Position numbers and translations under genes: made by a program | Notes under the pieces: model-generated | Seen by the model: the letters and a program-made list of their open reading frames with translations, nothing else | Database searches by the model: none | Told to the model about the DNA's origin: nothing | In this document: one piece after another, positions 8,480 through 53,770 of the stretch | Numbering within the stretch: the first letter of the stretch is position 1 | Layout of the letters: every line of letters begins with the position of its first letter | Virus record (IMG/VR): IMGVR_UViG_3300028653_000015 | Coordinates: 1 to 64,000 of that record | Source of the DNA: a virus | Lineage: Duplodnaviria; Caudoviricetes | Reading direction: 5' to 3' (one strand) | DNA length: 64,000 bases

Positions 8480-8506
8480 AAAAACAGGGCTCTAGTAGGG
8501 TATAAG
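8480..8506 (+). promoter_or_regulatory. Phage-specific promoter motif, copy 1
   Basis: AAAAA-cagggctctagta-GGGTATAAG; intergenic, upstream of ORF 8596. Confidence 0.65.
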
Positions 8507-9745: not shown

Positions 9746-12700
9746 TCAGAAGCTGTAATTCTCCATAAGGCCGCTGTCCTGCATAGGTGCAAAGATGTCT
9801 GGACGTGGTCTCTCTATGCAAGATGCCAACAAGCACAGAAGCATAGAGTGGAATGCATCATCCGTCTTTCCCGGCGGCTTCTTGTACTCGTTCATCCTGA
9901 GTCTCTCGTTGTGCTCGGTGAAGATGTTGAGGATGTCTGTACCATGTGGGTCCTGGTAGTCCTCCCACCTGGGCAAGTCTATCTTCTTTGCCTTCAGAGC
10001 ATTGAACCCATCGCTCATTACCTCTGTACGATGGCACATCCAGCGACGCAGGTTTGGCTCCCAATAGATCTTCTTTTTTTGCCTAGGATTGTACTGGTAC
10101 TTCATTACCTTGTTGGCGCCGAAACGCTTGATGAGCTTGTCGTTCTGATAGAAACCACCACCGTAGTCTACACCTATGATCTTAACGTGTACCTGAGACA
10201 ACATCTGCGTGAGTAGGTCCAGCTGCCGTTCTGGGTCTAGGTCTTGCCCAGTAAATCGATGACACCAGAAGATGGAGAAGTTGCCTGTGCCGAAGTATCC
10301 ACCAAATGAAACGTGAGTGAAGCTGGCGTTCTCTCCAGGACCCCAGTCCACTCCAGCATAGATGGACATACCCTGCGCTAGTCTACGAAAGGACTCTATG
10401 TCACCCAGTACGATCTCAGGCTTGCACACAGCCTGCAGTTGAGCTCGGGTGATTGGTCGTACACCGGAGTCATAGGACCTACCAAGCTTCTCATTCATGA
10501 ACTGGGAACGGGAGTATTGCTCTTGGGCTACTAGTACCTCTTCCCAGTCTACCCAGGGGACCATGATCTGAGGAATGCGGTATCCCTCGAAGGTAACCTT
10601 GTCCTTGTTGTCCTCCCGCATGGGGTTCATGGCAGCCCACTGTGCCATGGGATGCCGTGCGGTTATAGACTCCCCACACTTGTCACAGATGAGCCCCGTA
10701 GACCCTATGTTCTTCTCCGTTAGAACATTCCAATGCCAGGTACTCGAGTCACTGGGTAACCCATGCCGCTCACAGGGTACTACCCACTCGTTCTGTGAGG
10801 AGAACTCAGACCAGTAGAATTCTATGGTGTTATCTACTGACTTGGGTGTGCCTGAGTACAAGAATAGCTTGTAGCTAGAGTGGAAGGCACACTGCTCGAT
10901 GACTGGGATGTTATCGATCAAAACGTCTTGAAGCTCGTCGATCAGTACCATGTCTGCAGGAATACCACGAACACGGTCTGCAGTTAGATACGCATAACGA
11001 AGTCTGATCTGAGAGTAGTTGATAAACTTCTTGAAGAAGACAGCCTGGTTGATCTTAGCTGAGGTGTAGGACCTCAGCATGGGGGACGCATCTATGACAT
11101 CCTTGATGCGGTCATTGGAAAAGACCTTCGCCTGTTCCGCTGAAGGAGCTACGTACAGGGACCTGAAGTTGTTGGTGAGGGCTGAGTAGCAGAGCAGCCG
11201 GTTGCCCAGTGTAGTCGAGTTGTGTGTGATGAGTCCATCTACCACGAAGCTGTCAGTACCATCCACAGTGATGTCATAACAATCCTGCTCTCCCACCTCT
11301 TCGATACTCACTATCTCATCCCAGTACAAATCCGTGCTCAGGTGTTGAGCAAGGGCAGATGTTTTATCTTGATCAAATCTTGTGTCTGATCTGAAGAAGT
11401 CTACATACTGTTCAAGTTTGTCATGACTCAACAAGTACTTAGGTTTCTCCCTAAGTCCGGCAGATCTTAGGGATGGTTGTGGTACGTAGGGCCCGCTGCG
11501 GAAGCCGTTTCTAGACCTGTGTATGATAGCTATATCCTCCACAATACCAGCCGGGTACACATCCCTGTTGGAGTTAGTATCTACGTCGATGATTGGAATG
11601 TCCTCTGTCTTTCCAAGAGCACCAATGTCTTCTATGAATCTGACAGCCCCAGCTTGTGTTTCTATCCGCAGCTTGTACGCCCACTTGTCAGTACCTTTGT
11701 ACAATGTGGGTTTCCATCTACGTGTACTGGAAGGAATGCCAAACTTCCATAGAAGACGCTGCACATCTTTGATCAAGTGCTCAGAAATAGAATCGTACTC
11801 CAGGTGGTACGATGAATCTTGCAAACTTGCATGGCCATCGCCGGCCCATAAACGATTGATGAATAGGGCTGTTTGTCTTTGATCTAATCCCCACACAAAG
11901 TCTGGTACATGCTTGTCTGCAGACAACTCTCCCCAGATACCACACTCCTTCACCAGTTTTAGTACGGCAGACTCTGCATTGAATCGAATACTCCACAGGC
12001 CAGGCTTTCTCTCATTGGGGCTATAGTCATCACCTGCAACCAACTCTAGAAACTCCTGCAAGACTGGCCCTTCGCCCTGAGTAAAGGTACACGTATCTTG
12101 CTCGGGCAAGTACCCTTCTGCAATCATGTACGCTGCTAAGATCACCTTTCTATCTGGCGGAGTAGAAGTACTTGTAAACTCCCCAGCTCTCCGAACTGCC
12201 GCAATATGCTCCTGCTCAGAGAGACCACCAGAGATTGACCAGCCACCCCAGGTGCGCATTGGATGGGTCAATGCCACCACCACAGTATGGCCCTGTCTAG
12301 TCTTGATCTTTACGCAAGTCTTTCTAAGTTTTGCAGACTTCCAAGTTACTGATCCTATTTGTGTATGCGCACCATCAGGAGACATGCCTACTACTTTGTC
12401 TCCTACACAAATCTTCTCTAGGGGTGTTACACCGCCGTCTTCCATAGAAATCATGCTTGCTGCGAGACAGCATTTCTCTACCTGCCGGCCGCAAAGCATG
12501 AGAACTTTGTTTGCAGGCGTATCATATATCTTACGCAGGTACTCACGACCGGTAAATGAGAAGTCACCTATCCTACCCGCTTCAGGAACTCGAATCGCCG
12601 TCTCTGCGAAGTCGGATGGAGATACACCAAGCATCTCTGTAGAGGTAAGAGCACTAGAGGGGTCTACTTCTTCAGGCTCCTCGTCTATACCAAAGTCTAC

Positions 12701-12826
12701 AGCCTCGCCACCCTCATCATAATCAAAGATAGGTTCGACTATTCCATGATCATCAAAACAGTATGAGAGTGGAATGGTGTGTGCAGATCTAAGAAGTTCA
12801 GCCTCTGCCAGTGTGATTGTGGCCAT
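9746..12826 (-). CDS. terL: Terminase large subunit with intein
   Basis: Spliced Walker A CGRQVEK|STT, Walker B VLIDELQD, YSGTP motif, nuclease acidic motifs AGVDWG / GVDYGGG / DDAFH, and a CERH...CDKC insert as in gpA-type terminases. Confidence 0.85.
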   Translation of the reverse strand: MATITLAEAELLRSAHTIPLSYCFDDHGIVEPIFDYDEGGEAVDFGIDEEPEEVDPSSALTSTEMLGVSPSDFAETAIRVPEAGRIGDFSFTGREYLRKIYDTPANKVLMLCGRQVEKCCLAASMISMEDGGVTPLEKICVGDKVVGMSPDGAHTQIGSVTWKSAKLRKTCVKIKTRQGHTVVVALTHPMRTWGGWSISGGLSEQEHIAAVRRAGEFTSTSTPPDRKVILAAYMIAEGYLPEQDTCTFTQGEGPVLQEFLELVAGDDYSPNERKPGLWSIRFNAESAVLKLVKECGIWGELSADKHVPDFVWGLDQRQTALFINRLWAGDGHASLQDSSYHLEYDSISEHLIKDVQRLLWKFGIPSSTRRWKPTLYKGTDKWAYKLRIETQAGAVRFIEDIGALGKTEDIPIIDVDTNSNRDVYPAGIVEDIAIIHRSRNGFRSGPYVPQPSLRSAGLREKPKYLLSHDKLEQYVDFFRSDTRFDQDKTSALAQHLSTDLYWDEIVSIEEVGEQDCYDITVDGTDSFVVDGLITHNSTTLGNRLLCYSALTNNFRSLYVAPSAEQAKVFSNDRIKDVIDASPMLRSYTSAKINQAVFFKKFINYSQIRLRYAYLTADRVRGIPADMVLIDELQDVLIDNIPVIEQCAFHSSYKLFLYSGTPKSVDNTIEFYWSEFSSQNEWVVPCERHGLPSDSSTWHWNVLTEKNIGSTGLICDKCGESITARHPMAQWAAMNPMREDNKDKVTFEGYRIPQIMVPWVDWEEVLVAQEQYSRSQFMNEKLGRSYDSGVRPITRAQLQAVCKPEIVLGDIESFRRLAQGMSIYAGVDWGPGENASFTHVSFGGYFGTGNFSIFWCHRFTGQDLDPERQLDLLTQMLSQVHVKIIGVDYGGGFYQNDKLIKRFGANKVMKYQYNPRQKKKIYWEPNLRRWMCHRTEVMSDGFNALKAKKIDLPRWEDYQDPHGTDILNIFTEHNERLRMNEYKKPPGKTDDAFHSMLLCLLASCIERPRPDIFAPMQDSGLMENYSF
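11219..12472 (-). mobile_element. Intein (418 aa) with LAGLIDADG homing endonuclease, inserted in the terminase Walker A
   Basis: Starts CCLAASMISMEDG; block B THPMRT; LAGLIDADG-like AAYMIAEGYL and INRLWAGDGH; LLWKFGI; ends YDITVDGTDSFVVDGLITHN followed by Ser. Confidence 0.9.
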
Positions 12827-18060: not shown

Positions 18061-21000
18061 TCAGTACCACTCCGGATGTTCTTTAGGTGGCTTGCCTAGC
18101 TCGGCGGCGTAAACGACCGCAGGAATTGGATGTAGGCCGTGTATATGGCTTCTCCATCCCTGTTGTGCTGCGCTGATCACAGTATCTGCCAAACCCTCGT
18201 GGTTGAGCTTGGCCATCCAATCTTCCTGCATGTCTAGTGGTAGTACATTCACACCCTTGAGTATGGGCTCATGAACTATAGGCCGTTCTCCCTTAGCCAT
18301 ACTTCTATTCAATGAGGACACGAATGTAGTGGGCGCAAAGTCACCTCGAATGAAGTGTGTGGAAGAGCCTGCATCCTTTATCTTGGTGAGGTTAGTGAGC
18401 GCCTTGATCACTACCTCATGATTACGTCTACGAATTCCTTGACCTTTGTACATGTCATCCAGATTATCTGCCAACATGACCTGTACTGGTTCAATTCCAG
18501 TCAGAGGCAGCATCTCATGCGGGTTCACCCTACCATCTGAGATGGGCAAGCCCTTCTTGACCTCTGTACCAACTACCAAAGGCTTTTTGTCATAGACTGG
18601 TACTCCTCTAGACAGCGGGATGTAGTGCCGCTCCCCCTCTATGAGTACGTTGTGACCTCCAGCCGTATCCTTTTCTATCTTGGTTACTTTACCAGATACT
18701 GTGCTCAGTGTTGCTGAACCTGGCAAATTCTTCGGGAACAGCAACAGGTCTTGCACCTGTTCAAACTGATCAACAAGTGCCGACTTCGATGAGGCAGTAC
18801 CACCAGTATGGAATGCTTTCATGGCTAGCTGTGTTGCACGTTCACCTATAGCCTGACCGGCAAGAATGCCTACGTTCAGTCCCCTCTCCGGTAGAGTTCC
18901 ATTCTCCGTCAGGCCATAGCACATCTGACACAGACCAGGTCCATGCAAACAACGCAGCGGAGATCTAACTACCACCTTACCCACATTGTTGTTCCTGAGA
19001 GCACTTCGCAACTCTGGGGTGATTAGTGTGCCTGACTTTACTATCCTGTTGCCAAGTCTGACATCTGCAGCTGTGAATCTATCTAGAATATCTTTCTCAT
19101 CTACGGATAGAGCGATCCCTTTGTTAGTACCACAGTCATGATCTAGAATGAGGTTATTCATCGTAGAGTTGATAACCTGCTTAGTGATATGACCAGGCTC
19201 TCTAACTGCCTGAACCTTCTGAATGACACCCTTGCGACCACCACTGGTAGCTGTCCAGTAACCGGCAATGTCTAAGCCCTCAGCATAAGACTTACGTACA
19301 GGGTTGGGTATGATCTCCCCTTTATGATTGGCCATGAGCATAGGTGCAGCTCTAGTCTGTCTTACGGTGTCCGTGCCACCCTTCATACCCGTGTTGTGCA
19401 ACAACATGAGATTGTTGCCCTCTTCTGGTACGGCCCTCAAGTGGGCATTTAACTCTTCTGTGGCCTTCGCATAGATCTCAATGGCTTTGGCGTCTCTAGA
19501 CGGCCCTGACAACTTCTCTACTCGGGCATCCGCCTTGGCTAGTATTTGATCTCTAATTTCCCGTATAGGAGCTACGTCTTTGAGACCAACTGAAAAGGCA
19601 GTCTGAGTGGCCCACATGTTGCCTAGATCTTTGAGCTTGTTGATGGACTGTCCGTACTCGTTCTTGTGCTCCTTCGCGATGCGTGTCATCAGCTCTTCTT
19701 GAGCTGATGCATTTAGAGGGTCCGTCTTCCCAAGATACTCTCCCCTCATAACCTCTGGTAATGCACCAGCGACCATGAACCTGCCAACTGTAGAGTGTAT
19801 ACCTCCAACCTTTATTTGGTCTGTGAGCTTTACCTCTCCCTTTCTGACCGCAGCCTCCACATCCTGAATCGTAGAGAATTCATGGCTGGTGACAGCTCCT
19901 ACACGTGTGAGTCCATACAAACCCAGCCTACTCTCTCCGGATGGGGAGTACATCAACTTACCAGTAGCGGGACTGAACAGGTTATTGGAGGGGAACATCT
20001 TGTGTGCTTCAGCCACGGCCTCTGAGCCTACAGGTACGAAGGCACCCATAGCGTCTCCATCGAAGTCCGCATTGAAACCACTGGTGACTAGTGGGTGGAT
20101 TTGAACAGCCTTTCCACCGACAATACGGGGCTTGAATGCTTGGATACCATACTTGTGAAGCACGGGGTCTCGCTTCAGGAGTATTGGCCTACTGAGGATG
20201 ACCCTATCTAAAGCTCGGTCTACTATCTCCCCACCCTCTTGCATTTTCTGCTGTGCCTGCAGAGGAGAGATGCCCATCAAATTTCGTAGTTCTCGAATCA
20301 CGAAAGGCTTGTACAGTTCTAGAGCTGCAGACTTTGGTATTCCAACCTCATCTAGGCTGAGTGAGGGCTCTGGGACAATCGTTCCACGCATAGTCATATC
20401 CTGTTTGCGTGTGACCAATTGCTCCTGGAAGAATCCCTCCTTTGGAGGGCCCACCTTGGCACCAGTACTGGGATCTACACGCTTGCCGGCAATGTAGTCC
20501 AAGATGCCTCTACGAATACCACGTGGGTAGCTGCCTATGCCCGCCAGCGCACGCAAACCATCATACACTTCTTGTCTCAGCTCCACCTTAGACTGATCAT
20601 CGTCCGGTATGAGCGGGGACATTTTTGCGTATCTGGATGCAGTCAGATGCAGATTCTTGTACAGACCATTCAAGTCATCTTCACTTATAGTACCGTTTGG
20701 AAGGATGGGCAAAGGACGCATGGATGGGGGAAGTACTGGCACACTCTGCATCATGTATGCATCACGGGGGCTGACACCGATCTTATCCAGCACCTTCAAA
20801 AACTTGACCCGTTTGTTTACGTCGTCTAGGTAGGACCCCTTGAGTGTTGGCTTCTGCAACTTATCCAAGGCAGCAACCAGGTCCTTCTTCACATTTATCT
20901 TTCCTAGTAGTGCAGCAAAAGCCTTACCACCCACTAGACCGCCCTTAATCTTCAGCGGGTCACCATACTTACCTGTAATGGGATCATAGGCTAGTGTACC

Positions 21001-24000
21001 TGCGATCAGTCCATCATACTGATTAGTCTTGAGTCCAGTCAGCTTTACTATGGCTCCCTCAAATACTGGATTCGGGAATGCTTCTGGCAATACGAAGTGA
21101 CTCCACTTATCCCCCTCCATACCACCTGTAATCTTCTGATCGAATAGACCACCTGGCTCAGGCCGCATGGTTTTAGCAACAGTCATCTTAGATGGATCTT
21201 TGAGCTCACCGTTGCTCATCTCGTGGACTTGCTTATCTGTCATAGGAGAAAGCGTCAGACTGTTTCCAGTCTTCTCTACATTCACATTCAGACCTTTGAT
21301 CAGACTGATGAACTTGTTGTACGCAAATGTAGGCTTTGGGGTAGGGAGCAGTTCTCCTGCTTGTAAAGCAGCCCAAAATTGATCTCCTTGGCCTGCATCA
21401 CTCTTCAATGTATTCATCTCGCGAAGGTTTGCTGTAGCTCCGTGAGCAAGCATAGAGTACAGACCCAACACTCCTAGAGACTGAGCGCCATGTGGACCAC
21501 CGCCTTTGGGTATCTTGTTCCTATCGTAGGCGTACCCATAACCCAGGGCTCGAGCACTGAGTTTCTTTTCTACCTGGTGGTGCAATTTGAGGACATGCAT
21601 AGGCCCTACTAGTGCATCTCCCATAGGTCTTCCGTTACTAGGATCGTAGACAGTTTCCTTATCCGTCAAGCCATGCTTAGCCAAATCCTGTGTAACCTGG
21701 GCATGTAAGTCTGCGCCTGGTTTGAAGTTCTTGGTAAAGTATGTCTTGCCTGTCTTTTCCGCAATCTTACCTGCAGCAACCTCCAACACCTGCCCTAGGT
21801 TGGTTCTACCAGTAACACCCAATGGGTTTAAGATCACATCTATGGGCCTACCATCTTTGGTATGTGGCGCCTCATGGTCAGGTATGATCTTAGTAATGAT
21901 GCCCTTGTTACCGTGGCGGCCTGTGATCTTGTCTCCAATCTCTAGAGTCTCTTCTGTCTTCACGTGAACGGCAACATTATGACCAGTCTTAACGACCTCT
22001 TTCACAACCCCTGGGTAGTCGTTGTCCCATGTAACACTGGCATCCTTAAATGGCCGTACAATCGACTTGTGCAGTTTGGATAGCTGCACATCCTCCCGCT
22101 TCTCTGACTCATTTGAAGCGCGTAGAGCAGCTATGAGAGTGTCACCAGGCATAACCACCGTGCCAGGCTTGATAACCCCCTCGTCATCAAGCTTCTCAGC
22201 TTGGGCTCTATTCATACCAGTGGGTATGTACGCCTGGAACTTACGCTTATCTAGGACGTGAGCCACATCCCTCTCGATTGAGTGCCTGTGTAAATGCTCT
22301 GACGTGAGCTTCTTAGCGGCACTCTCCGTAACTACAATACCATCTTCGTAGTTGTACCCCTTGTATGGCATGAACCCAACACGAAGATTGGTACCCAAAG
22401 CCAACACACCGTTCTTGGTGTAGTTGGTGTCGGCCACCGTCTGCCCAGCCGTTACCTTATCTCCCACCTTTACTATGGGTGTGGAGTGTAGAAAGGCTTT
22501 GTCCTCATTCAACGGAAAGTGATCATAAATCTGAACTTCGTGCCTCTTCCCATCTGCGCCTTTAATAACTACAGCATCTGATTTGATCTGAGCAACAGTG
22601 CCACTATCACGAGTATGGTGACTAGCAAAGCCTCCAACAAAGTGATCGAAGCTATGTACACCTGCCAAACTCTGTACAAGTGGGGCCTCTCTGTGCAGTA
22701 GAGAGACTGATTGCTCCATTTGCCGACCGGCCATTGTACTTCTGTTCGGGTGGTCAGCTGGCATGAAAGGGATGAGGTTCGATGCAAACGAGAACATTTG
22801 CATCGGGTCCTTCATTACATAGTCCGCACTCTTTATGGAGCCGTCATAGATCTCATTCTCAAGACCACTGATCTTTATGGAGGGTCCTATGGGTACTGGT
22901 TTGCCTTCTACCCACTTGACTTGGTCTGGAAGGACTACATGAGACCTGTAGGCAACTGTTGGGTTGACGTCCTCAGTCTTACCAGTATGTAGATTGTACA
23001 TACGGATGGTGACATCATGGCCGTTCTTGGTAACACCTATGGGCAGTCGTAGAGTGATGCCAGTCTCCTTGCCCTCTGGTGTGTGTATGGGATCCAGGTA
23101 GCCCAAATGGGACGGGTCTATCAGCTTCGCTTCATCAGAGACTGTGTGCTCGCTCTTGATACCACCATCTCCTGTGATGGTGGTCTTGAATTGAGCAGAG
23201 ATCATTTCAAGAGGATTGGTCTGGCTTGGTACTGAAGACAAAGAGTTCTTGGAGAACAGCTGCCGTATATGTCTATTGAAGATGTCCGGAGCTATGATGT
23301 CTCTGACCTTGTCCTTCTTGTCTACCGTATTTCCGATCTTACGTAAGATGTCTCTAGAGCCTCGAGTTATTCTCTCAGCTGCAAAGTCCTCCATCGAGTG
23401 AAGGTCCTTGAACATGATGGCGTCTCTAGGATCTGGCTTGGCCTCTCCACGAGAAATCTTGAGCAACTTGACGGAAGCATCTAGTAGCGTAGCACCAGTC
23501 ACGTTGGAGTGTGGCTTACCCAACGTGAGCATGTTGACGTCTGGATTCATCTTGGTGTTATCCATGACTTGCCAGAAGTGAGCACGCATATCCTCTGAAG
23601 TCATGATGGACGCGGGCTTGAGGCCCGTATCAGACTTGTAGAACTTAGCCAACGCCTTGGGCATGTCTGCGTGATTGGCAGCCGCAATATCCTTACCCCA
23701 CCTCTTCTCTACCTCCTCTTCCGGCATTCCCATAGCATGGAGTAAAGGCTTGAGAGGTATGTTGGAGTTACCATACCCCATAGAGAACTCACGAGTAGCT
23801 GGGTCAAAGTGGATCTTGAAACCACCTCCTGGTGCATTGAAGTGCGATTCTAATGCACCGTCAGCCTTGATCATATTGTATACGCCAGGCTTCAAACGCC
23901 ACTGGTTATCTACTTGGTACTCCTGACCATCAACTATGCTGCTGTATCGGTTAGTGATCTTAGGCAAGCTCATTAGCTTGATCTTCTGCCTATCTATCAC

Positions 24001-24240
24001 CTTACCCGTAGCATTGTCCTTCAAAGAGACCGTAGCCTCCACCGGTACCGCCCACGACTTACCCTCAAGTTTGGCCTCCTTCTGAGACCTGAAGTCACCG
24101 CTATCCAGGTTGTCCCTGACAGCTACGTCGTGAAGCTCTAGCGTGTTCTTCTTCCCTACTATCGGGAAGAGACCGCTGACTGCATTTTGTACTCGGTCTT
24201 TGAGGAGATCAAACCCCTCTGCCGGGACAATACGTGCCAC
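18061..24240 (-). CDS. rpoBC: Fused RNA polymerase beta-beta' (single 2059-aa chain)
   Basis: Beta motifs: TPEG, GYNYEDG, GDKITGRHGNKG, NPLGVTGRTNLGQ, KLHHQVEKKLSAR, LKSD. Beta' motifs: VLPPSMRP, RDPVLHK, catalytic NADFDGD (20053-20073), DCG...RSPLRC...CQMCYG, trigger loop GERATQLAMKAFHTGG. GTG start with AGGAG RBS. Confidence 0.95.
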   Translation of the reverse strand: MARIVPAEGFDLLKDRVQNAVSGLFPIVGKKNTLELHDVAVRDNLDSGDFRSQKEAKLEGKSWAVPVEATVSLKDNATGKVIDRQKIKLMSLPKITNRYSSIVDGQEYQVDNQWRLKPGVYNMIKADGALESHFNAPGGGFKIHFDPATREFSMGYGNSNIPLKPLLHAMGMPEEEVEKRWGKDIAAANHADMPKALAKFYKSDTGLKPASIMTSEDMRAHFWQVMDNTKMNPDVNMLTLGKPHSNVTGATLLDASVKLLKISRGEAKPDPRDAIMFKDLHSMEDFAAERITRGSRDILRKIGNTVDKKDKVRDIIAPDIFNRHIRQLFSKNSLSSVPSQTNPLEMISAQFKTTITGDGGIKSEHTVSDEAKLIDPSHLGYLDPIHTPEGKETGITLRLPIGVTKNGHDVTIRMYNLHTGKTEDVNPTVAYRSHVVLPDQVKWVEGKPVPIGPSIKISGLENEIYDGSIKSADYVMKDPMQMFSFASNLIPFMPADHPNRSTMAGRQMEQSVSLLHREAPLVQSLAGVHSFDHFVGGFASHHTRDSGTVAQIKSDAVVIKGADGKRHEVQIYDHFPLNEDKAFLHSTPIVKVGDKVTAGQTVADTNYTKNGVLALGTNLRVGFMPYKGYNYEDGIVVTESAAKKLTSEHLHRHSIERDVAHVLDKRKFQAYIPTGMNRAQAEKLDDEGVIKPGTVVMPGDTLIAALRASNESEKREDVQLSKLHKSIVRPFKDASVTWDNDYPGVVKEVVKTGHNVAVHVKTEETLEIGDKITGRHGNKGIITKIIPDHEAPHTKDGRPIDVILNPLGVTGRTNLGQVLEVAAGKIAEKTGKTYFTKNFKPGADLHAQVTQDLAKHGLTDKETVYDPSNGRPMGDALVGPMHVLKLHHQVEKKLSARALGYGYAYDRNKIPKGGGPHGAQSLGVLGLYSMLAHGATANLREMNTLKSDAGQGDQFWAALQAGELLPTPKPTFAYNKFISLIKGLNVNVEKTGNSLTLSPMTDKQVHEMSNGELKDPSKMTVAKTMRPEPGGLFDQKITGGMEGDKWSHFVLPEAFPNPVFEGAIVKLTGLKTNQYDGLIAGTLAYDPITGKYGDPLKIKGGLVGGKAFAALLGKINVKKDLVAALDKLQKPTLKGSYLDDVNKRVKFLKVLDKIGVSPRDAYMMQSVPVLPPSMRPLPILPNGTISEDDLNGLYKNLHLTASRYAKMSPLIPDDDQSKVELRQEVYDGLRALAGIGSYPRGIRRGILDYIAGKRVDPSTGAKVGPPKEGFFQEQLVTRKQDMTMRGTIVPEPSLSLDEVGIPKSAALELYKPFVIRELRNLMGISPLQAQQKMQEGGEIVDRALDRVILSRPILLKRDPVLHKYGIQAFKPRIVGGKAVQIHPLVTSGFNADFDGDAMGAFVPVGSEAVAEAHKMFPSNNLFSPATGKLMYSPSGESRLGLYGLTRVGAVTSHEFSTIQDVEAAVRKGEVKLTDQIKVGGIHSTVGRFMVAGALPEVMRGEYLGKTDPLNASAQEELMTRIAKEHKNEYGQSINKLKDLGNMWATQTAFSVGLKDVAPIREIRDQILAKADARVEKLSGPSRDAKAIEIYAKATEELNAHLRAVPEEGNNLMLLHNTGMKGGTDTVRQTRAAPMLMANHKGEIIPNPVRKSYAEGLDIAGYWTATSGGRKGVIQKVQAVREPGHITKQVINSTMNNLILDHDCGTNKGIALSVDEKDILDRFTAADVRLGNRIVKSGTLITPELRSALRNNNVGKVVVRSPLRCLHGPGLCQMCYGLTENGTLPERGLNVGILAGQAIGERATQLAMKAFHTGGTASSKSALVDQFEQVQDLLLFPKNLPGSATLSTVSGKVTKIEKDTAGGHNVLIEGERHYIPLSRGVPVYDKKPLVVGTEVKKGLPISDGRVNPHEMLPLTGIEPVQVMLADNLDDMYKGQGIRRRNHEVVIKALTNLTKIKDAGSSTHFIRGDFAPTTFVSSLNRSMAKGERPIVHEPILKGVNVLPLDMQEDWMAKLNHEGLADTVISAAQQGWRSHIHGLHPIPAVVYAAELGKPPKEHPEWY

Positions 24241-50237: not shown

Positions 50238-50595
50238 AGTCGATGCAAACGACTTCTCACGTACGAACATCACAGAGTTGATTACTCTGTGCCAGCATGC
50301 CGGTATCCTTGGAGCACACAGGGGCATACCGCGCAAAACACTTATCGCACTGCTGAGAGGAGAGACAACAGCCAGAGCAGTAGACATGCCGGACCCTGTG
50401 GACAACTACAGGGAGATGATGCTCTATCTACAAGAGTCCATGCCAGACATTATCAAAGGGCAACTGAAGTGCAGTACTGATCACTACTTCTGCCCGGCTT
50501 GTCCGCCAGCAAGAGTGGTAGCATGTGCACTCGTGAACTTTGATGAAGGGTTCAGAGAGCAAATCTTGAAAGAGATGAAGATGGGGCAAGGATGA
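50215..50595 (+). CDS. Small protein with Rho-N/HeH-like helices and Cys cluster
   Basis: FSRTNITELITLCQHAGI...RKTLIALL; C....CPAC.....AC. Confidence 0.5.
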   Translation: MVTPLVPKVDANDFSRTNITELITLCQHAGILGAHRGIPRKTLIALLRGETTARAVDMPDPVDNYREMMLYLQESMPDIIKGQLKCSTDHYFCPACPPARVVACALVNFDEGFREQILKEMKMGQG

Positions 50596-50834
50596 ACCTC
50601 AAGAGTTGTGTAAGCTGTGACCGGCTTACCACCTGTCACGTCGTAGATGCAGACAAGTTGGAAATGGGGTATTGTTGCGATTCATGGGCCAAGACAAGCT
50701 CAAGTATCTTGTCAGGCCGCCTTCAAATTGCTAAAAGGTTCGGACCTTGGGCACTCAGGTACGAAACCATTCGACTGCAACCAGTAGGTGAGAGTGCTGG
50801 ACCAAAAATCAGGAGACGACACAAAAATGGCTGA
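50592..50834 (+). CDS. Small Cys-rich protein
   Basis: CVSC....C...CC; ATGA-coupled. Confidence 0.5.
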   Translation: MNLKSCVSCDRLTTCHVVDADKLEMGYCCDSWAKTSSSILSGRLQIAKRFGPWALRYETIRLQPVGESAGPKIRRRHKNG

Positions 50835-51387
50835 CACGTACACTCGCGAAGATCTAGGAAAACTGAAGCGCTCTGAGCTGCGGGCCTTGGCTGTAAGTGA
50901 CAAGGTGGGCATGACGTTCCAAGAAGCAAGCACCGCACGATCTGAAGACATGGTGGAGATTATCCTCAAGAAGCTCGGAGGAGCAGGAGCTAAGAAGGGA
51001 GCACCCGCTCCCAAGGGAAAGCCAGCTGGTAAGCCAGCACCTACCCCAGAACCCGAACCGGAAGAGACACCAGAAGAAGAGGCCCCTGCGGAAGAAGAAG
51101 CTCCTGCAGAAGAACCCGAAGAAGTGCCGGAAAAGAAGAAGGGTGGCAGGGCCCTGAAGGAAGAGAATACGGTCATCCAACGGGTAGATACAATCGGCCT
51201 GTTGGTCGAGGAAACATCCAAGAACGTGGTAGGTCTGACTGAGAAGTTGGGTGCCCTGCAGAAGCAGTCCTATGTTGCACTCAGCTTGCTCAAACTGCTG
51301 TTGGGTGCCAACATGGAACCTGATGAGGTGGACAAGGCTATCGACGAAGCCTCCACAGAATTCGATGGTGGCGAGGGAAAAGAGTAA
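50827..51387 (+). CDS. Rho-N/HeH-like N-terminus, acidic linker, coiled coil (start ATG 50827); ends at a slippery site
   Basis: AGGAG RBS; YTREDLGKLKRSELRALA...EDMVEIIL; EEAPAEEE linker; ends GAG GGA AAA GAG TAA. Confidence 0.7.
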   Translation: MADTYTREDLGKLKRSELRALAVSDKVGMTFQEASTARSEDMVEIILKKLGGAGAKKGAPAPKGKPAGKPAPTPEPEPEETPEEEAPAEEEAPAEEPEEVPEKKKGGRALKEENTVIQRVDTIGLLVEETSKNVVGLTEKLGALQKQSYVALSLLKLLLGANMEPDEVDKAIDEASTEFDGGEGKE

Positions 51388-51566
51388 AGGGGATAGACCC
51401 CATACCTCCGTCTGCTGAAGACGTAGTCACATTCAGCTTCAGCAGCCTAGAGAGAATGAGTGTCAAAGAACTTCTGATGGTGATCGAGTCTGTTGTATCT
51501 GACCGACCACCACCAGGAGCTACTAAAGAGCAGCTCCTGCACTTCATTCATCTCAACTCGATCTAG
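51375..51566 (+). other. Candidate programmed -1 frameshift site and 61-aa C-terminal extension
   Basis: In-frame G_GGA_AAA at 51375-51381. The -1 frame is open from 51381 to 51566 (RVKGIDP...LERMSVKELL...TKEQLLHFIHLNSI) and stops just before the terminator. Confidence 0.65.
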
Positions 51567-51574
51567 TTTCGAGT

Positions 51575-51607
51575 AGAAGGGAGCCCACCGGGGGCTCCCT
51601 TTCTTTT
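51575..51607 (+). terminator. Intrinsic terminator ending the replication block
   Basis: AAGGGAGCCC / GGGCTCCCTT stem followed by TCTTTT. Confidence 0.85.
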
Positions 51608-51610
51608 GCC

Positions 51611-51682: not shown

Positions 51683-52042
51683 ATGAGTATGCTAATGCCG
51701 AAAGACATCCGAAGTGATGTGCGGAGAATTCTAGCCAGTGCTGCCACTGGAAAGCCCGTAGGATGGAAGCCTCAGTATGTTACTGCCTATCAGATCTTTC
51801 GACGGCTTCCCTCCGCAATCAGACACAGACTGGTAGCTGAAAGGGGGAAGCCTGGGAAGGGTAGCGGCAACGAGTTTGCAGCGGCGAGTGTTGTTGCCAT
51901 GGCATGCAGGGGCATGCCTGACGTACGTATCCGACGTCTGGACACCGAAGGTATCACCTTCGAAACCGGCACAAACAGAATCGCGAAAGCAGGGTACAAG
52001 GTGTGTGGCATCTACAGACTGCTACCACACCAGAACAACTAG
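51683..52042 (+). CDS. Basic hypothetical protein
   Basis: AAAGGA RBS; R/K-rich 119 aa. Confidence 0.6.
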   Translation: MSMLMPKDIRSDVRRILASAATGKPVGWKPQYVTAYQIFRRLPSAIRHRLVAERGKPGKGSGNEFAAASVVAMACRGMPDVRIRRLDTEGITFETGTNRIAKAGYKVCGIYRLLPHQNN

Positions 52043-52060
52043 CACAGGAAGGATTGGAGG

Positions 52061-52309
52061 ATGACAGAGAACGGGAAGACGTATTGGGTACACAAGTCAG
52101 AAGAGCGGACGTGGTGCAAGTTGTTGCCGCAACAATGGTCATTGCATGTAGAGCCCTCATTCCTAGCCAGGTACATCTACACTGGCTATGTGGCGATCAG
52201 AAACGAGAAGGTAATACAAAACATCGGCGCTGACGATGTGACCGAGTGTCAGCAACTGGTAGAGCAGAAAGCTAAAGAGTATCTGACAGCACTGCTGTCT
52301 GCTCTATAA
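52061..52309 (+). CDS. Hypothetical protein
   Basis: 82-aa ORF with GGA/GGAGG upstream. Confidence 0.55.
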   Translation: MTENGKTYWVHKSEERTWCKLLPQQWSLHVEPSFLARYIYTGYVAIRNEKVIQNIGADDVTECQQLVEQKAKEYLTALLSAL

Positions 52310-52468: not shown

Positions 52469-53770
52469 CTACAGAGGTATCTGACCCTTCTCTAGCTTCC
52501 GCACTATGTTCAGCACTCTGCGTATTCCTCGAACATCCTGACTGGCCTCAAAAACAGGATTGGTGGGCTGCACAGTAGGCGCACCTGGAGCAGGAGCAAC
52601 AGGTGCTGGTGGCCGAATATCAAGAGCCCCCACCTTCCGAAGACTCGCAGGCATCTTGAACTTGGGTACCCTTGGCTCCTTCCCGAATACCTCAGGACCT
52701 GCCTCTAGAACCGCATCAGCTCGCTTCTGTAGGGCGTTTGCTATCTTGACCAGCTTCCCCTTCTCCTTAGCCAACTCACGCAGCCTGTCCATGGATATCT
52801 CCACCATGCTACCAAAGAACTTGGGGTTGTCGTAGTGGTCCAGGTATGCCTCTTTGGCGTCTTCAGCAGTGTCCCAGCCAAGCAATATCTTGTCCTCGTC
52901 GTACTTGCCTGTGTCTGGCCTCTGCTGGTGTACTACGAAAGCCTTCTCCGCATCCGGGTTGGGCCCTACAAAGACATCCAGGCCCTCTCCGTCCGCTCCC
53001 TTGGTGCCTCTGATGTAGCCATAGGCATATCTGAAAGTGGTAGCCCACTCGTGGCCGTCCTTGTCTTTACCTCTCCGTACACTACCCGCTGTGTGCTCTA
53101 TGTCTAGTGGCAAGCCTTGGAACTCCATCTGTGAATCTAGCTTGTAGGCTGCTGTCTTTGCCTTCAGCCACAACTCTGCCATCCCACGCTTGTCCAGGCC
53201 CTTAGCCTGACGTACTCGGGCATCCTGTGGCTCTTGTGGCTCTACCTCTGTGGTGGGGTTATCATCAGTGTCACCGGAACCAAGACCAGTGTCCCTGGTA
53301 GCCACATCAGAGTCATGCTTCATGTCACGGGCAGGAGGATTGAAACTGTTCTGATCAACTACTGGCACACTCCCAGGCAGGTCTGTGGGACTGCCTGTGT
53401 GTTTATTTGCTCCTCGGCCTACAAACTCTGGCGAGCTCTTCTCTTCCGGCTTTTGATCTTGGGTTGGTGGGTTCAATCTACTCTGATACATGGCTCCGGT
53501 ATCTTCGATGTCAAAGTTGGAGTAGTCAGCTCGCTTTACTACCGACCCGATTTTGAAAATGCGATTCAGATGGGGTTGAAGCTTAGTCCCATCACCCATG
53601 AATCCGCCGCCATCGTAATCAGACATCTTCTCCTCCCCGGTTTGGGTGGGGTCCATACGAGTACCTTGGAGTTGATGGCCAGAGATTTCTCTGGCCTGCT
53701 CCTCGTTATCACCGTTGGGACCGTCCAGCTTCCCTAGAAGCTTTTTGTCCTGGGAGGGGTCTTCTATCAC
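52469..53770 (-). CDS. Virion protein containing an inorganic pyrophosphatase-like (InPase) domain between disordered K-x-A segments
   Basis: FQGL...IE...GS.R.G.D..G..W...YGYI.GT.GADGE.LDVFVGP...VVHQ....YDEDK..LG; flanked by AKTAA and VKIAN/QKRAD. Confidence 0.7.
   Translation of the reverse strand: MIEDPSQDKKLLGKLDGPNGDNEEQAREISGHQLQGTRMDPTQTGEEKMSDYDGGGFMGDGTKLQPHLNRIFKIGSVVKRADYSNFDIEDTGAMYQSRLNPPTQDQKPEEKSSPEFVGRGANKHTGSPTDLPGSVPVVDQNSFNPPARDMKHDSDVATRDTGLGSGDTDDNPTTEVEPQEPQDARVRQAKGLDKRGMAELWLKAKTAAYKLDSQMEFQGLPLDIEHTAGSVRRGKDKDGHEWATTFRYAYGYIRGTKGADGEGLDVFVGPNPDAEKAFVVHQQRPDTGKYDEDKILLGWDTAEDAKEAYLDHYDNPKFFGSMVEISMDRLRELAKEKGKLVKIANALQKRADAVLEAGPEVFGKEPRVPKFKMPASLRKVGALDIRPPAPVAPAPGAPTVQPTNPVFEASQDVRGIRRVLNIVRKLEKGQIPL

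Follow-up and report, generated by a model that had tools for sequence, protein, structure and literature searches.

In the 64,000-nucleotide (nt) stretch of tailed-phage DNA analysed here (positions 1 to 64,000 of the IMG/VR virus record IMGVR_UViG_3300028653_000015, Caudoviricetes; hereafter 'the window'), a gene at positions 50827-51387 of the + strand very probably uses programmed -1 ribosomal frameshifting, a reading to which we assign a rough probability of 0.88 from sequence comparison. The gene lies outside the tail module, and the shift would append a second small helix-extension-helix module of the SAP/HeH/Rho_N type to a minority of the molecules produced. Frameshifting is the best reading because of the comparative evidence, that is, because the slippery site, the -1 frame, the encoded peptide and the placement of the terminator are kept among relatives, and not because of the window taken by itself.

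The open reading frame (ORF) in the 0 frame starts at ATG 50827, 11 nt downstream of an AGGAG (50811-50815), and ends at TAA 51385-51387, encoding a protein of 186 amino acids (aa; P0001); an in-frame GTG further upstream (50788) is disfavoured as the initiation codon, since the sequences of distant homologues open with the motif MA..YTRE. The last codons, GAG GGA AAA GAG TAA, contain the slippery heptamer G_GGA_AAA (51375-51381) in the X_XXY_YYZ phase, one codon before the 0-frame stop. AAA makes up 23% of the Lys codons and GGA 22% of the Gly codons in this phage, and the joint chance of G_GGA_AAA, given the amino acids encoded, is ∼0.014 per lineage. An in-phase heptamer within the last 10 codons, accompanied by a 61-codon continuation in the -1 frame, is found in one of the 61 putative genes of the window. 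This continuation (51381-51566, + strand; 61 codons followed by TAG 51564-51566) is part of a -1-frame open span of 51327-51566, in which ATG 51456 is the earliest start codon and lacks a Shine-Dalgarno (SD)-like motif within 20 nt. The predicted trans-frame product has 246 aa, i.e., residues 1-185 of the short protein plus 61, with the junction ...DGGEGK/RVKGIDP.... After a 7-nt spacer, the heptamer is followed by a candidate stimulatory stem-loop, GGGG-ATAGA-CCCC (51389-51401, + strand), with a predicted energy of -6.8 kcal/mol including its flanks and -5.3 kcal/mol alone, and directly 3' of the -1 stop lies an intrinsic terminator composed of a GC stem and UUUCUUUU (51570-51608, + strand; -21.8 kcal/mol), which a simple terminator scanner does not list because the stem is bulged. 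A search with Rfam gives no frameshift element and only a sub-threshold hairpin match in the terminator region, and no tRNA genes are found in the window, so that the slip is not influenced by a tRNA from the phage. A previous sequence-only reading of this DNA had described the ORF, the phased heptamer, the hairpin, the -1 frame and its stop, the internal ATG without ribosome-binding site, and the terminator, and all of these statements are confirmed by re-reading.

The following sequence of events would account for this layout. A ribosome at G_GGA_AAA would hold Gly-tRNA on GGA and Lys-tRNA on AAA, and in a fraction of the ribosomes both would re-pair one base back, on GGG_AAA, in a tandem slip; we infer this slip, its efficiency and the contribution of the hairpin. 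Shifted ribosomes would then read AGA GTA AAG and so forth for 61 codons up to the TAG, so that most ribosomes would yield the 186-aa protein and the shifted minority a 246-aa isoform consisting of the shared 185 residues, a Pro-rich linker and the second helix-extension-helix module. The downstream stem-loop, located at 5-9 nt and of variable strength among relatives, is a probable aid to the slip, to which the 0-frame stop close by may contribute as well.

Searches for homologues returned 20 and then 48 proteins, all of 97-218 aa, and DNA was available for 11 loci including the window, which represent 10 distinct sequences (L008 and L009 being the same) with 28-79% aa identity; five of these sequences (the window and L002-L005) constitute the window's clade. 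Scans of viral contigs with P0021, P0028 and P0020 gave no match, and a scan with L014 recovered only L014. An in-phase slippery heptamer is located 0-4 codons before the stop in 11 of 11 loci, the variant being GGGAAAA in nine of them, G_GGA_AAC in L014 and A_AAG_GGG in L006, and it is kept while flanking synonymous positions vary. The -1 frame is likewise open for 60-69 codons past the site at every locus, in several cases (L002, L003, L007, L008/9) opening just 2-5 codons upstream of the extension, and it encodes homologous peptides with the pattern P..P...D..T.....L..(M/L)(S/T)..EL..l....V.......(T/D)(K/R)e.ll.l...(H/N)S(I/V/L). A conserved start codon is missing from this frame, and wherever the downstream DNA of a locus extends far enough, the terminator comes after the -1 stop and not after the 0-frame stop. 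Site, frame and peptide are thus conserved at the level of the aligned sequences, and the programmed -1 frameshift proposed from the window, together with the conservation in related phages that the sequence-only reading had put forward for checking, has found support in all 11 loci, none of which lacks the heptamer.

The protein collection points in the same direction. Among 50 family proteins, 46 carry G-K (29 proteins) or G-N (17 proteins) within their last 8 residues and one carries K-G, the remaining three (P0016, P0017 and P0061) being truncated or aberrant, and G-K or G-N is always preceded by a residue for which a codon with a final G exists (E, Q, P, K, G, S or T). An in-frame fused form is found neither among the 20 and 48 homologues nor among the 12 matches of an exhaustive search with a profile of the extension. 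Within the window's clade, the extension has no stop in the -1 frame as compared with 6-8 and 3-5 stops in the other two frames, and the ratio of synonymous to non-synonymous codon differences is 144:198 in the -1 frame versus 48:275 and 18:307 in the others. The same signature is seen in the 25 codons that precede the internal ATG, with a synonymous share of 0.35 in the -1 frame versus 0.12 and 0.04, while the end of the 0-frame gene, taken as a control, yields 0.61. 

Several observations weigh against this reading. Those regarding the RNA concern the stimulator: a stem-loop is present 5-9 nt after the heptamer in 10 of 10 distinct sequences, with stem sequences that differ, but it clearly beats shuffled sequences only in L014 (0 of 100 shuffles as good), L008 (1/100) and L002 (5/100); the window hairpin has four G-C pairs only and is matched by 39 of 100 shuffles, the stem-loops of L001 (27/100), L006 (19/100) and L007 (38/100) are unremarkable as well, and MAFFT/RNAalifold applied to the hairpin region did not yield a convincing consensus fold (-2.35 kcal/mol). 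As for the proteins, neither the N-terminal domain nor the extension reaches a Pfam threshold, and P0016 ends 8 residues short without G-K, where the contig itself may end. The remaining observations concern starts of translation within the -1 frame: 7 of the 10 distinct sequences share an internal ATG at one position of the alignment, the clade whose proteins end in E-W-x-x-Q-G-N (the 'QGN clade') has a -1-frame ATG or GTG 4-5 codons upstream of the heptamer, and public gene calls of 68-72 aa start from such an ATG or GTG (P0026, P0028, P0032 and P0033).

These last points are what would be expected if the downstream part were instead a separate small gene of 36-72 aa, translated from a start of its own (ATG 51456 or, in some relatives, an ATG or GTG shortly before the heptamer) or by termination coupling. 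Public gene finders have indeed called ORFs not only of 68-72 aa but also of 37 aa in this region (P0023 and P0024 in addition to the four just named), and L001 carries an AGGAGG 11 nt before its internal ATG. We nevertheless consider a separate gene improbable. In L007 and L008/9 the internal Met is replaced by Leu, and the earliest candidate starts, an ATG at extension codon 35 (L007) and only a GTG at codon 41 (L008/L009), lie inside the conserved module; in the window, ATG 51456 is not preceded by an SD-like motif; and the 25 codons 5' of the ATG show, besides the -1-frame coding signature described above, the conserved residues P..P...D..T.....L. The ATG or GTG of the QGN clade arises because of conserved Glu-Trp codons (GAR TGG), of which it is a by-product, and it is absent from the window's clade; moreover, the 68-72-aa calls start immediately ahead of 'GKR', which is how the heptamer reads in the -1 frame, and therefore also show that the site is kept. 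A separate gene would, in addition, leave the invariance of a heptamer made of rare codons unexplained. The sequence-only reading had regarded a downstream part with a start of its own as the case that would speak against it; part of this applies to the QGN clade, where an ATG or GTG does occur near the site and may serve for independent initiation.

Transcriptional slippage on a short A/G run, giving rise to a minority of mRNAs with one base fewer or two more, would fuse the two frames as well and predict the same C-terminal extension from the -1 frame, and a homopolymer run is present at the site. Programmed transcriptional slippage uses runs of ∼7 or more bases, however, while those found here comprise just 3-5 (AAAA in the window, AAA in L014, AAAA and GGGGG in L006), and what has been kept is a phased X_XXY_YYZ heptamer with a stem-loop at the typical spacing of 5-9 nt, so that we regard slippage of the polymerase as highly improbable. 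Least credible of all is that an assembly indel or a decaying gene left the -1 frame open by accident. In favour of this, a 60-codon open frame has a chance probability of a few percent at 50% G+C and the window hairpin is not significant, but 10 distinct sequences obtained from different metagenomes share the layout and a homologous peptide, the -1 frame bears a signature of selection, and contigs from two other sequencing runs, which possibly belong to the same campaign, span the site base for base with 0 differences and 0 gaps. The latter agreement also removes the concern about an indel error voiced in the sequence-only reading; contigs of single other runs leave parts of the stretch uncovered.

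Programmed -1 frameshifting would thus provide the long isoform with an additional module, corresponding to extension residues 17-58 (51429-51554, + strand), which resembles the SAP, HeH/LEM and Rho_N domains (PF02037, PF12949 and PF07498). The exhaustive profile search with the extension, covering the whole library, produced 12 matches which include short ORF calls as well as SAP/HeH/Rho_N repeat proteins, the latter accounting for four of the 12 (P0025, P0027, P0029 and P0031; E-values from 5e-7 to 1e-4). The profile aligns with these repeats over the full module, and in P0027 the matching residues 1998-2033 coincide with a Pfam HeH/LEM domain at 1999-2031. Comparison of the extension with the N-terminal domain of its own family using hhalign yields an alignment of 43 columns (E-value 7.8e-5, probability 61%), and a narrower comparison one of 22 columns (E-value 0.0099, probability 4%). 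The alignments with SAP/HeH-LEM/Rho_N repeats run end to end and share the pattern L..M.v.EL..l....... (T/A)TK.qLl..l. Unlike established members of these families, however, no Pfam model is at threshold on either domain, and binding of nucleic acids is a prediction only: the SAP, HeH and Rho_N models match 0 of 13 extension sequences even at E-values up to 10, and sub-threshold Rho_N matches of the N-terminal domain comprise one of 19 members (E-value 0.052) and the N-terminus encoded by L014 (E-value 0.028). In the Atlas, 7 of the 10 structural-neighbour rows for a model of P0001 (predicted local distance difference test score 0.58) are Rho_N/SAP clusters with low template-modelling scores, which makes them a lead only, and the Atlas holds no entry for the extension or P0028. 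Hence, the claim that the shift adds a second Rho_N/HeH-like domain is supported at the level of profiles, including the relation with the N-terminal domain, while it falls short of recognition by Pfam. It is plausible that the extension arose by internal duplication of the N-terminal domain.

The 186-aa protein itself would comprise (i) the HeH/SAP/Rho_N-like N-terminal domain of residues 1-52 (50827-50982, + strand), (ii) an acidic linker rich in Pro, Glu and Ala in the middle of the protein, and (iii) a C-terminal domain of approximately residues 108-180 (51148-51366, + strand), which is delineated by its conservation among homologues and lacks a family match. For the C-terminal domain no consistent Pfam or PHROG match was obtained, and with the whole protein, the C-terminal domain or the extension as query, Pfam, PHROGs and NCBIfam returned only low-complexity or sub-threshold matches. 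PDB sequence profiles gave nothing significant, with no sequence relative of the C-terminal domain, the gene has no DNA or protein match among the INPHARED phages, and GTDB genome contigs contain no relative and therefore give no clue to the host. A second in-phase heptamer, G_GGA_AAG at 51015-51021 (+ strand), is found within the same gene at the codons for K-G-K of the linker. It was rejected as a shift signal, since the -1 frame stays open for no more than 3 codons past it and relatives do not keep K-G-K, many of them having R-G-R or K-G-R.

The closest known parallel is the G/GT frameshift of phage lambda with its counterparts in other tailed phages and haloviruses. Shared with it are the type of heptamer, the placement of the site towards the 3' end of the upstream ORF, the minor, C-terminally extended isoform containing the whole short protein, which is a prediction for the present gene, and the fact that the device outlasts sequence divergence. 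According to a part of PMC5009743, G_GGA_AAG is highly shift-prone in E. coli, and the g-t shift sites of haloviruses are G_GGA_AAC and G_GGA_AAG. In contrast to lambda G/GT, however, the present gene is located outside the tail module and exhibits no similarity to chaperone families, and the part added would be a small HeH/SAP-like module rather than a tail-binding T domain. We thus rejected an identity as a tail assembly chaperone: instead of being placed between the major tail and tape-measure genes, the gene follows those for a Cas4-like exonuclease, ThyX and a RusA-like resolvase, and it has no match to a chaperone PHROG or Pfam family, in agreement with the statement of the sequence-only reading that this is a non-tail gene.

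A second parallel is provided by dnaX of E. coli, where the isoforms tau and gamma result from a -1 shift at A_AAA_AAG aided by a stem-loop. Both systems feature a heptamer with a Lys codon, a downstream stem-loop (a candidate stimulator in the present case), a replication context and isoforms, here predicted, that differ by C-terminal domains, but the dnaX shift leads to an immediate stop and thereby truncates the product, while the present shift would extend it, and there is no homology between the two. A conserved internal SD-like stimulator upstream of the site, as in dnaX, was not seen in the distant loci. Frameshifting on dnaX mRNA is also mentioned in a part of PMC6787027.

Third, a -1 shift close to the gene end gives rise to a short C-terminal extension in gene 10A/10B of phages T7 and T3 and in the major head protein of Lactobacillus phage A2. 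As proposed here, a fraction of the molecules gains a short extension in these cases, but the proteins concerned are virion proteins, while the present gene is located among genes for replication and recombination, and its extension would duplicate a module of nucleic-acid-binding type.

It is then tempting to speculate, with low confidence, that the protein acts within the replication/recombination block by binding nucleic acids, and that the shift sets the ratio of a one-headed to a two-headed form. In a more specific version, which we consider possible but somewhat doubtful, frameshifting would fix the stoichiometry of one- and two-headed DNA binding in phage replication, recombination or genome organisation, with the long form bridging or capping DNA or a partner. 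If so, a whole undescribed family of large phages from soil and rhizosphere would possess a phage equivalent of the dnaX type of isoform control, with a second head that is a duplicate of the first and has been placed behind a recoding signal.

While the mechanism is thus of the textbook kind, the gene family would be a new place for -1 frameshifting. Nearly all annotated phage frameshifts are located in tail-chaperone genes, and in the training data of PRFect, as given in a part of PMC10885494, tail chaperones account for 2397 of 2476 joined genes. Since the same part of that paper also lists lysins, methyltransferases, polymerases, RusA/RuvC and capsids as further classes of phage genes with reported frameshifts, a frameshift outside the tail genes is not new in kind. 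In the literature no description of this gene family or of a similar case was found, although supplementary lists (e.g., the non-chaperone predictions of PRFect) might hold some, and none of the three heptamers occurs in the main text of PMC4066793. What the family adds is a canonical signal in a non-structural gene of uncultured ∼170-190-kilobase (kb) phages, persisting among homologues as distant as 28% identity. With its three heptamer variants and hairpins ranging from weak to strong it also constitutes a natural test set, and it provides a handle on a protein of the replication/recombination block through the partner for which the extra HeH-type module would be needed sub-stoichiometrically. 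Furthermore, annotations should be corrected, as gene callers miss the long product and either omit the extension or call spurious ORFs of 37-72 aa.

Regarding the genomic context, the virus record to which the window belongs comprises 79 kb and has a CheckV completeness of 43%. The frameshift gene is the final gene of a replication/recombination block on the + strand (32.0-51.6 kb), upon whose end the virion genes of the minus strand converge. The block encodes a helicase, a DnaB-like helicase, a primase, a family-A DNA polymerase, HU, a RecA/UvsX-like ATPase and a Holliday-junction resolvase as well as the Cas4-like exonuclease, ThyX and the RusA-like protein. The order Cas4-like, orf207, RusA-like, orf126, Cys-rich orf80, frameshift gene and terminator is found in all sufficiently long relatives (9 loci), among which the frameshift gene (29-43% identity) diverges faster than its neighbours, with the RusA-like protein at 61-69%. 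The Cys-rich ORF of 80 aa (50592-50834, + strand; C..C......C...........CC) precedes the frameshift gene in every relative, in the window with an overlap of 8 nt with its start, and has no family match.

Beyond the terminator and before the convergent virion gene, two small genes encode 119 and 82 aa (51683-52309, + strand). The nine related loci contain no counterpart of either, and neither has a family match; they resemble an insert specific to this lineage that carries a promoter-like motif of its own. On the minus strand, the ORF at 52469-53770 encodes a 433-aa protein in which an InPase domain (PF18823; residues 205-333, E-value 5e-41) sits between conserved N- and C-terminal parts, and the homologue in L009, with 304 aa, seemingly lacks this insert.

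Two further ORFs of the window lie on the minus strand. A single ORF of 2059 aa (18061-24240) has matches to several PHROG families that carry the name RNA polymerase beta subunit, and the nearest cultured relatives of this fused multisubunit-type RNA polymerase are found, at ∼31% identity, in Vibrio phages D69/D181 and Salmonella phage Arash. The other, of 1026 aa (9746-12826), carries a terminase large-subunit domain (residues 538-986) behind ∼530 unknown or helicase-like residues. This terminase ORF also contains an in-phase A_AAA_AAG (10073-10079, minus strand) 110 codons before its stop, with a -1 frame that is open for 71 codons; this observation derives from the window sequence alone and may be due to chance.

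Finally, a bipartite promoter-like motif, GCAAAA(A/T) followed after ∼16-17 nt by GGTATAAG(G/T/A)A, occurs six times in the window and only on the + strand (at 8499, 9240, 12858, 24325, 31987 and 51630). The core alone is not over-represented, with 7 matches versus 5.4 expected. The motif precedes + strand genes; one of the six sites lies ahead of the replication operon's start (31987) and another ahead of the small genes beyond the terminator (51630), and the motif is also found 3' of the terminator in L001-L008. The GCAAAA box and the conservation in relatives suggest that the motif may represent an early or middle promoter of the phage.

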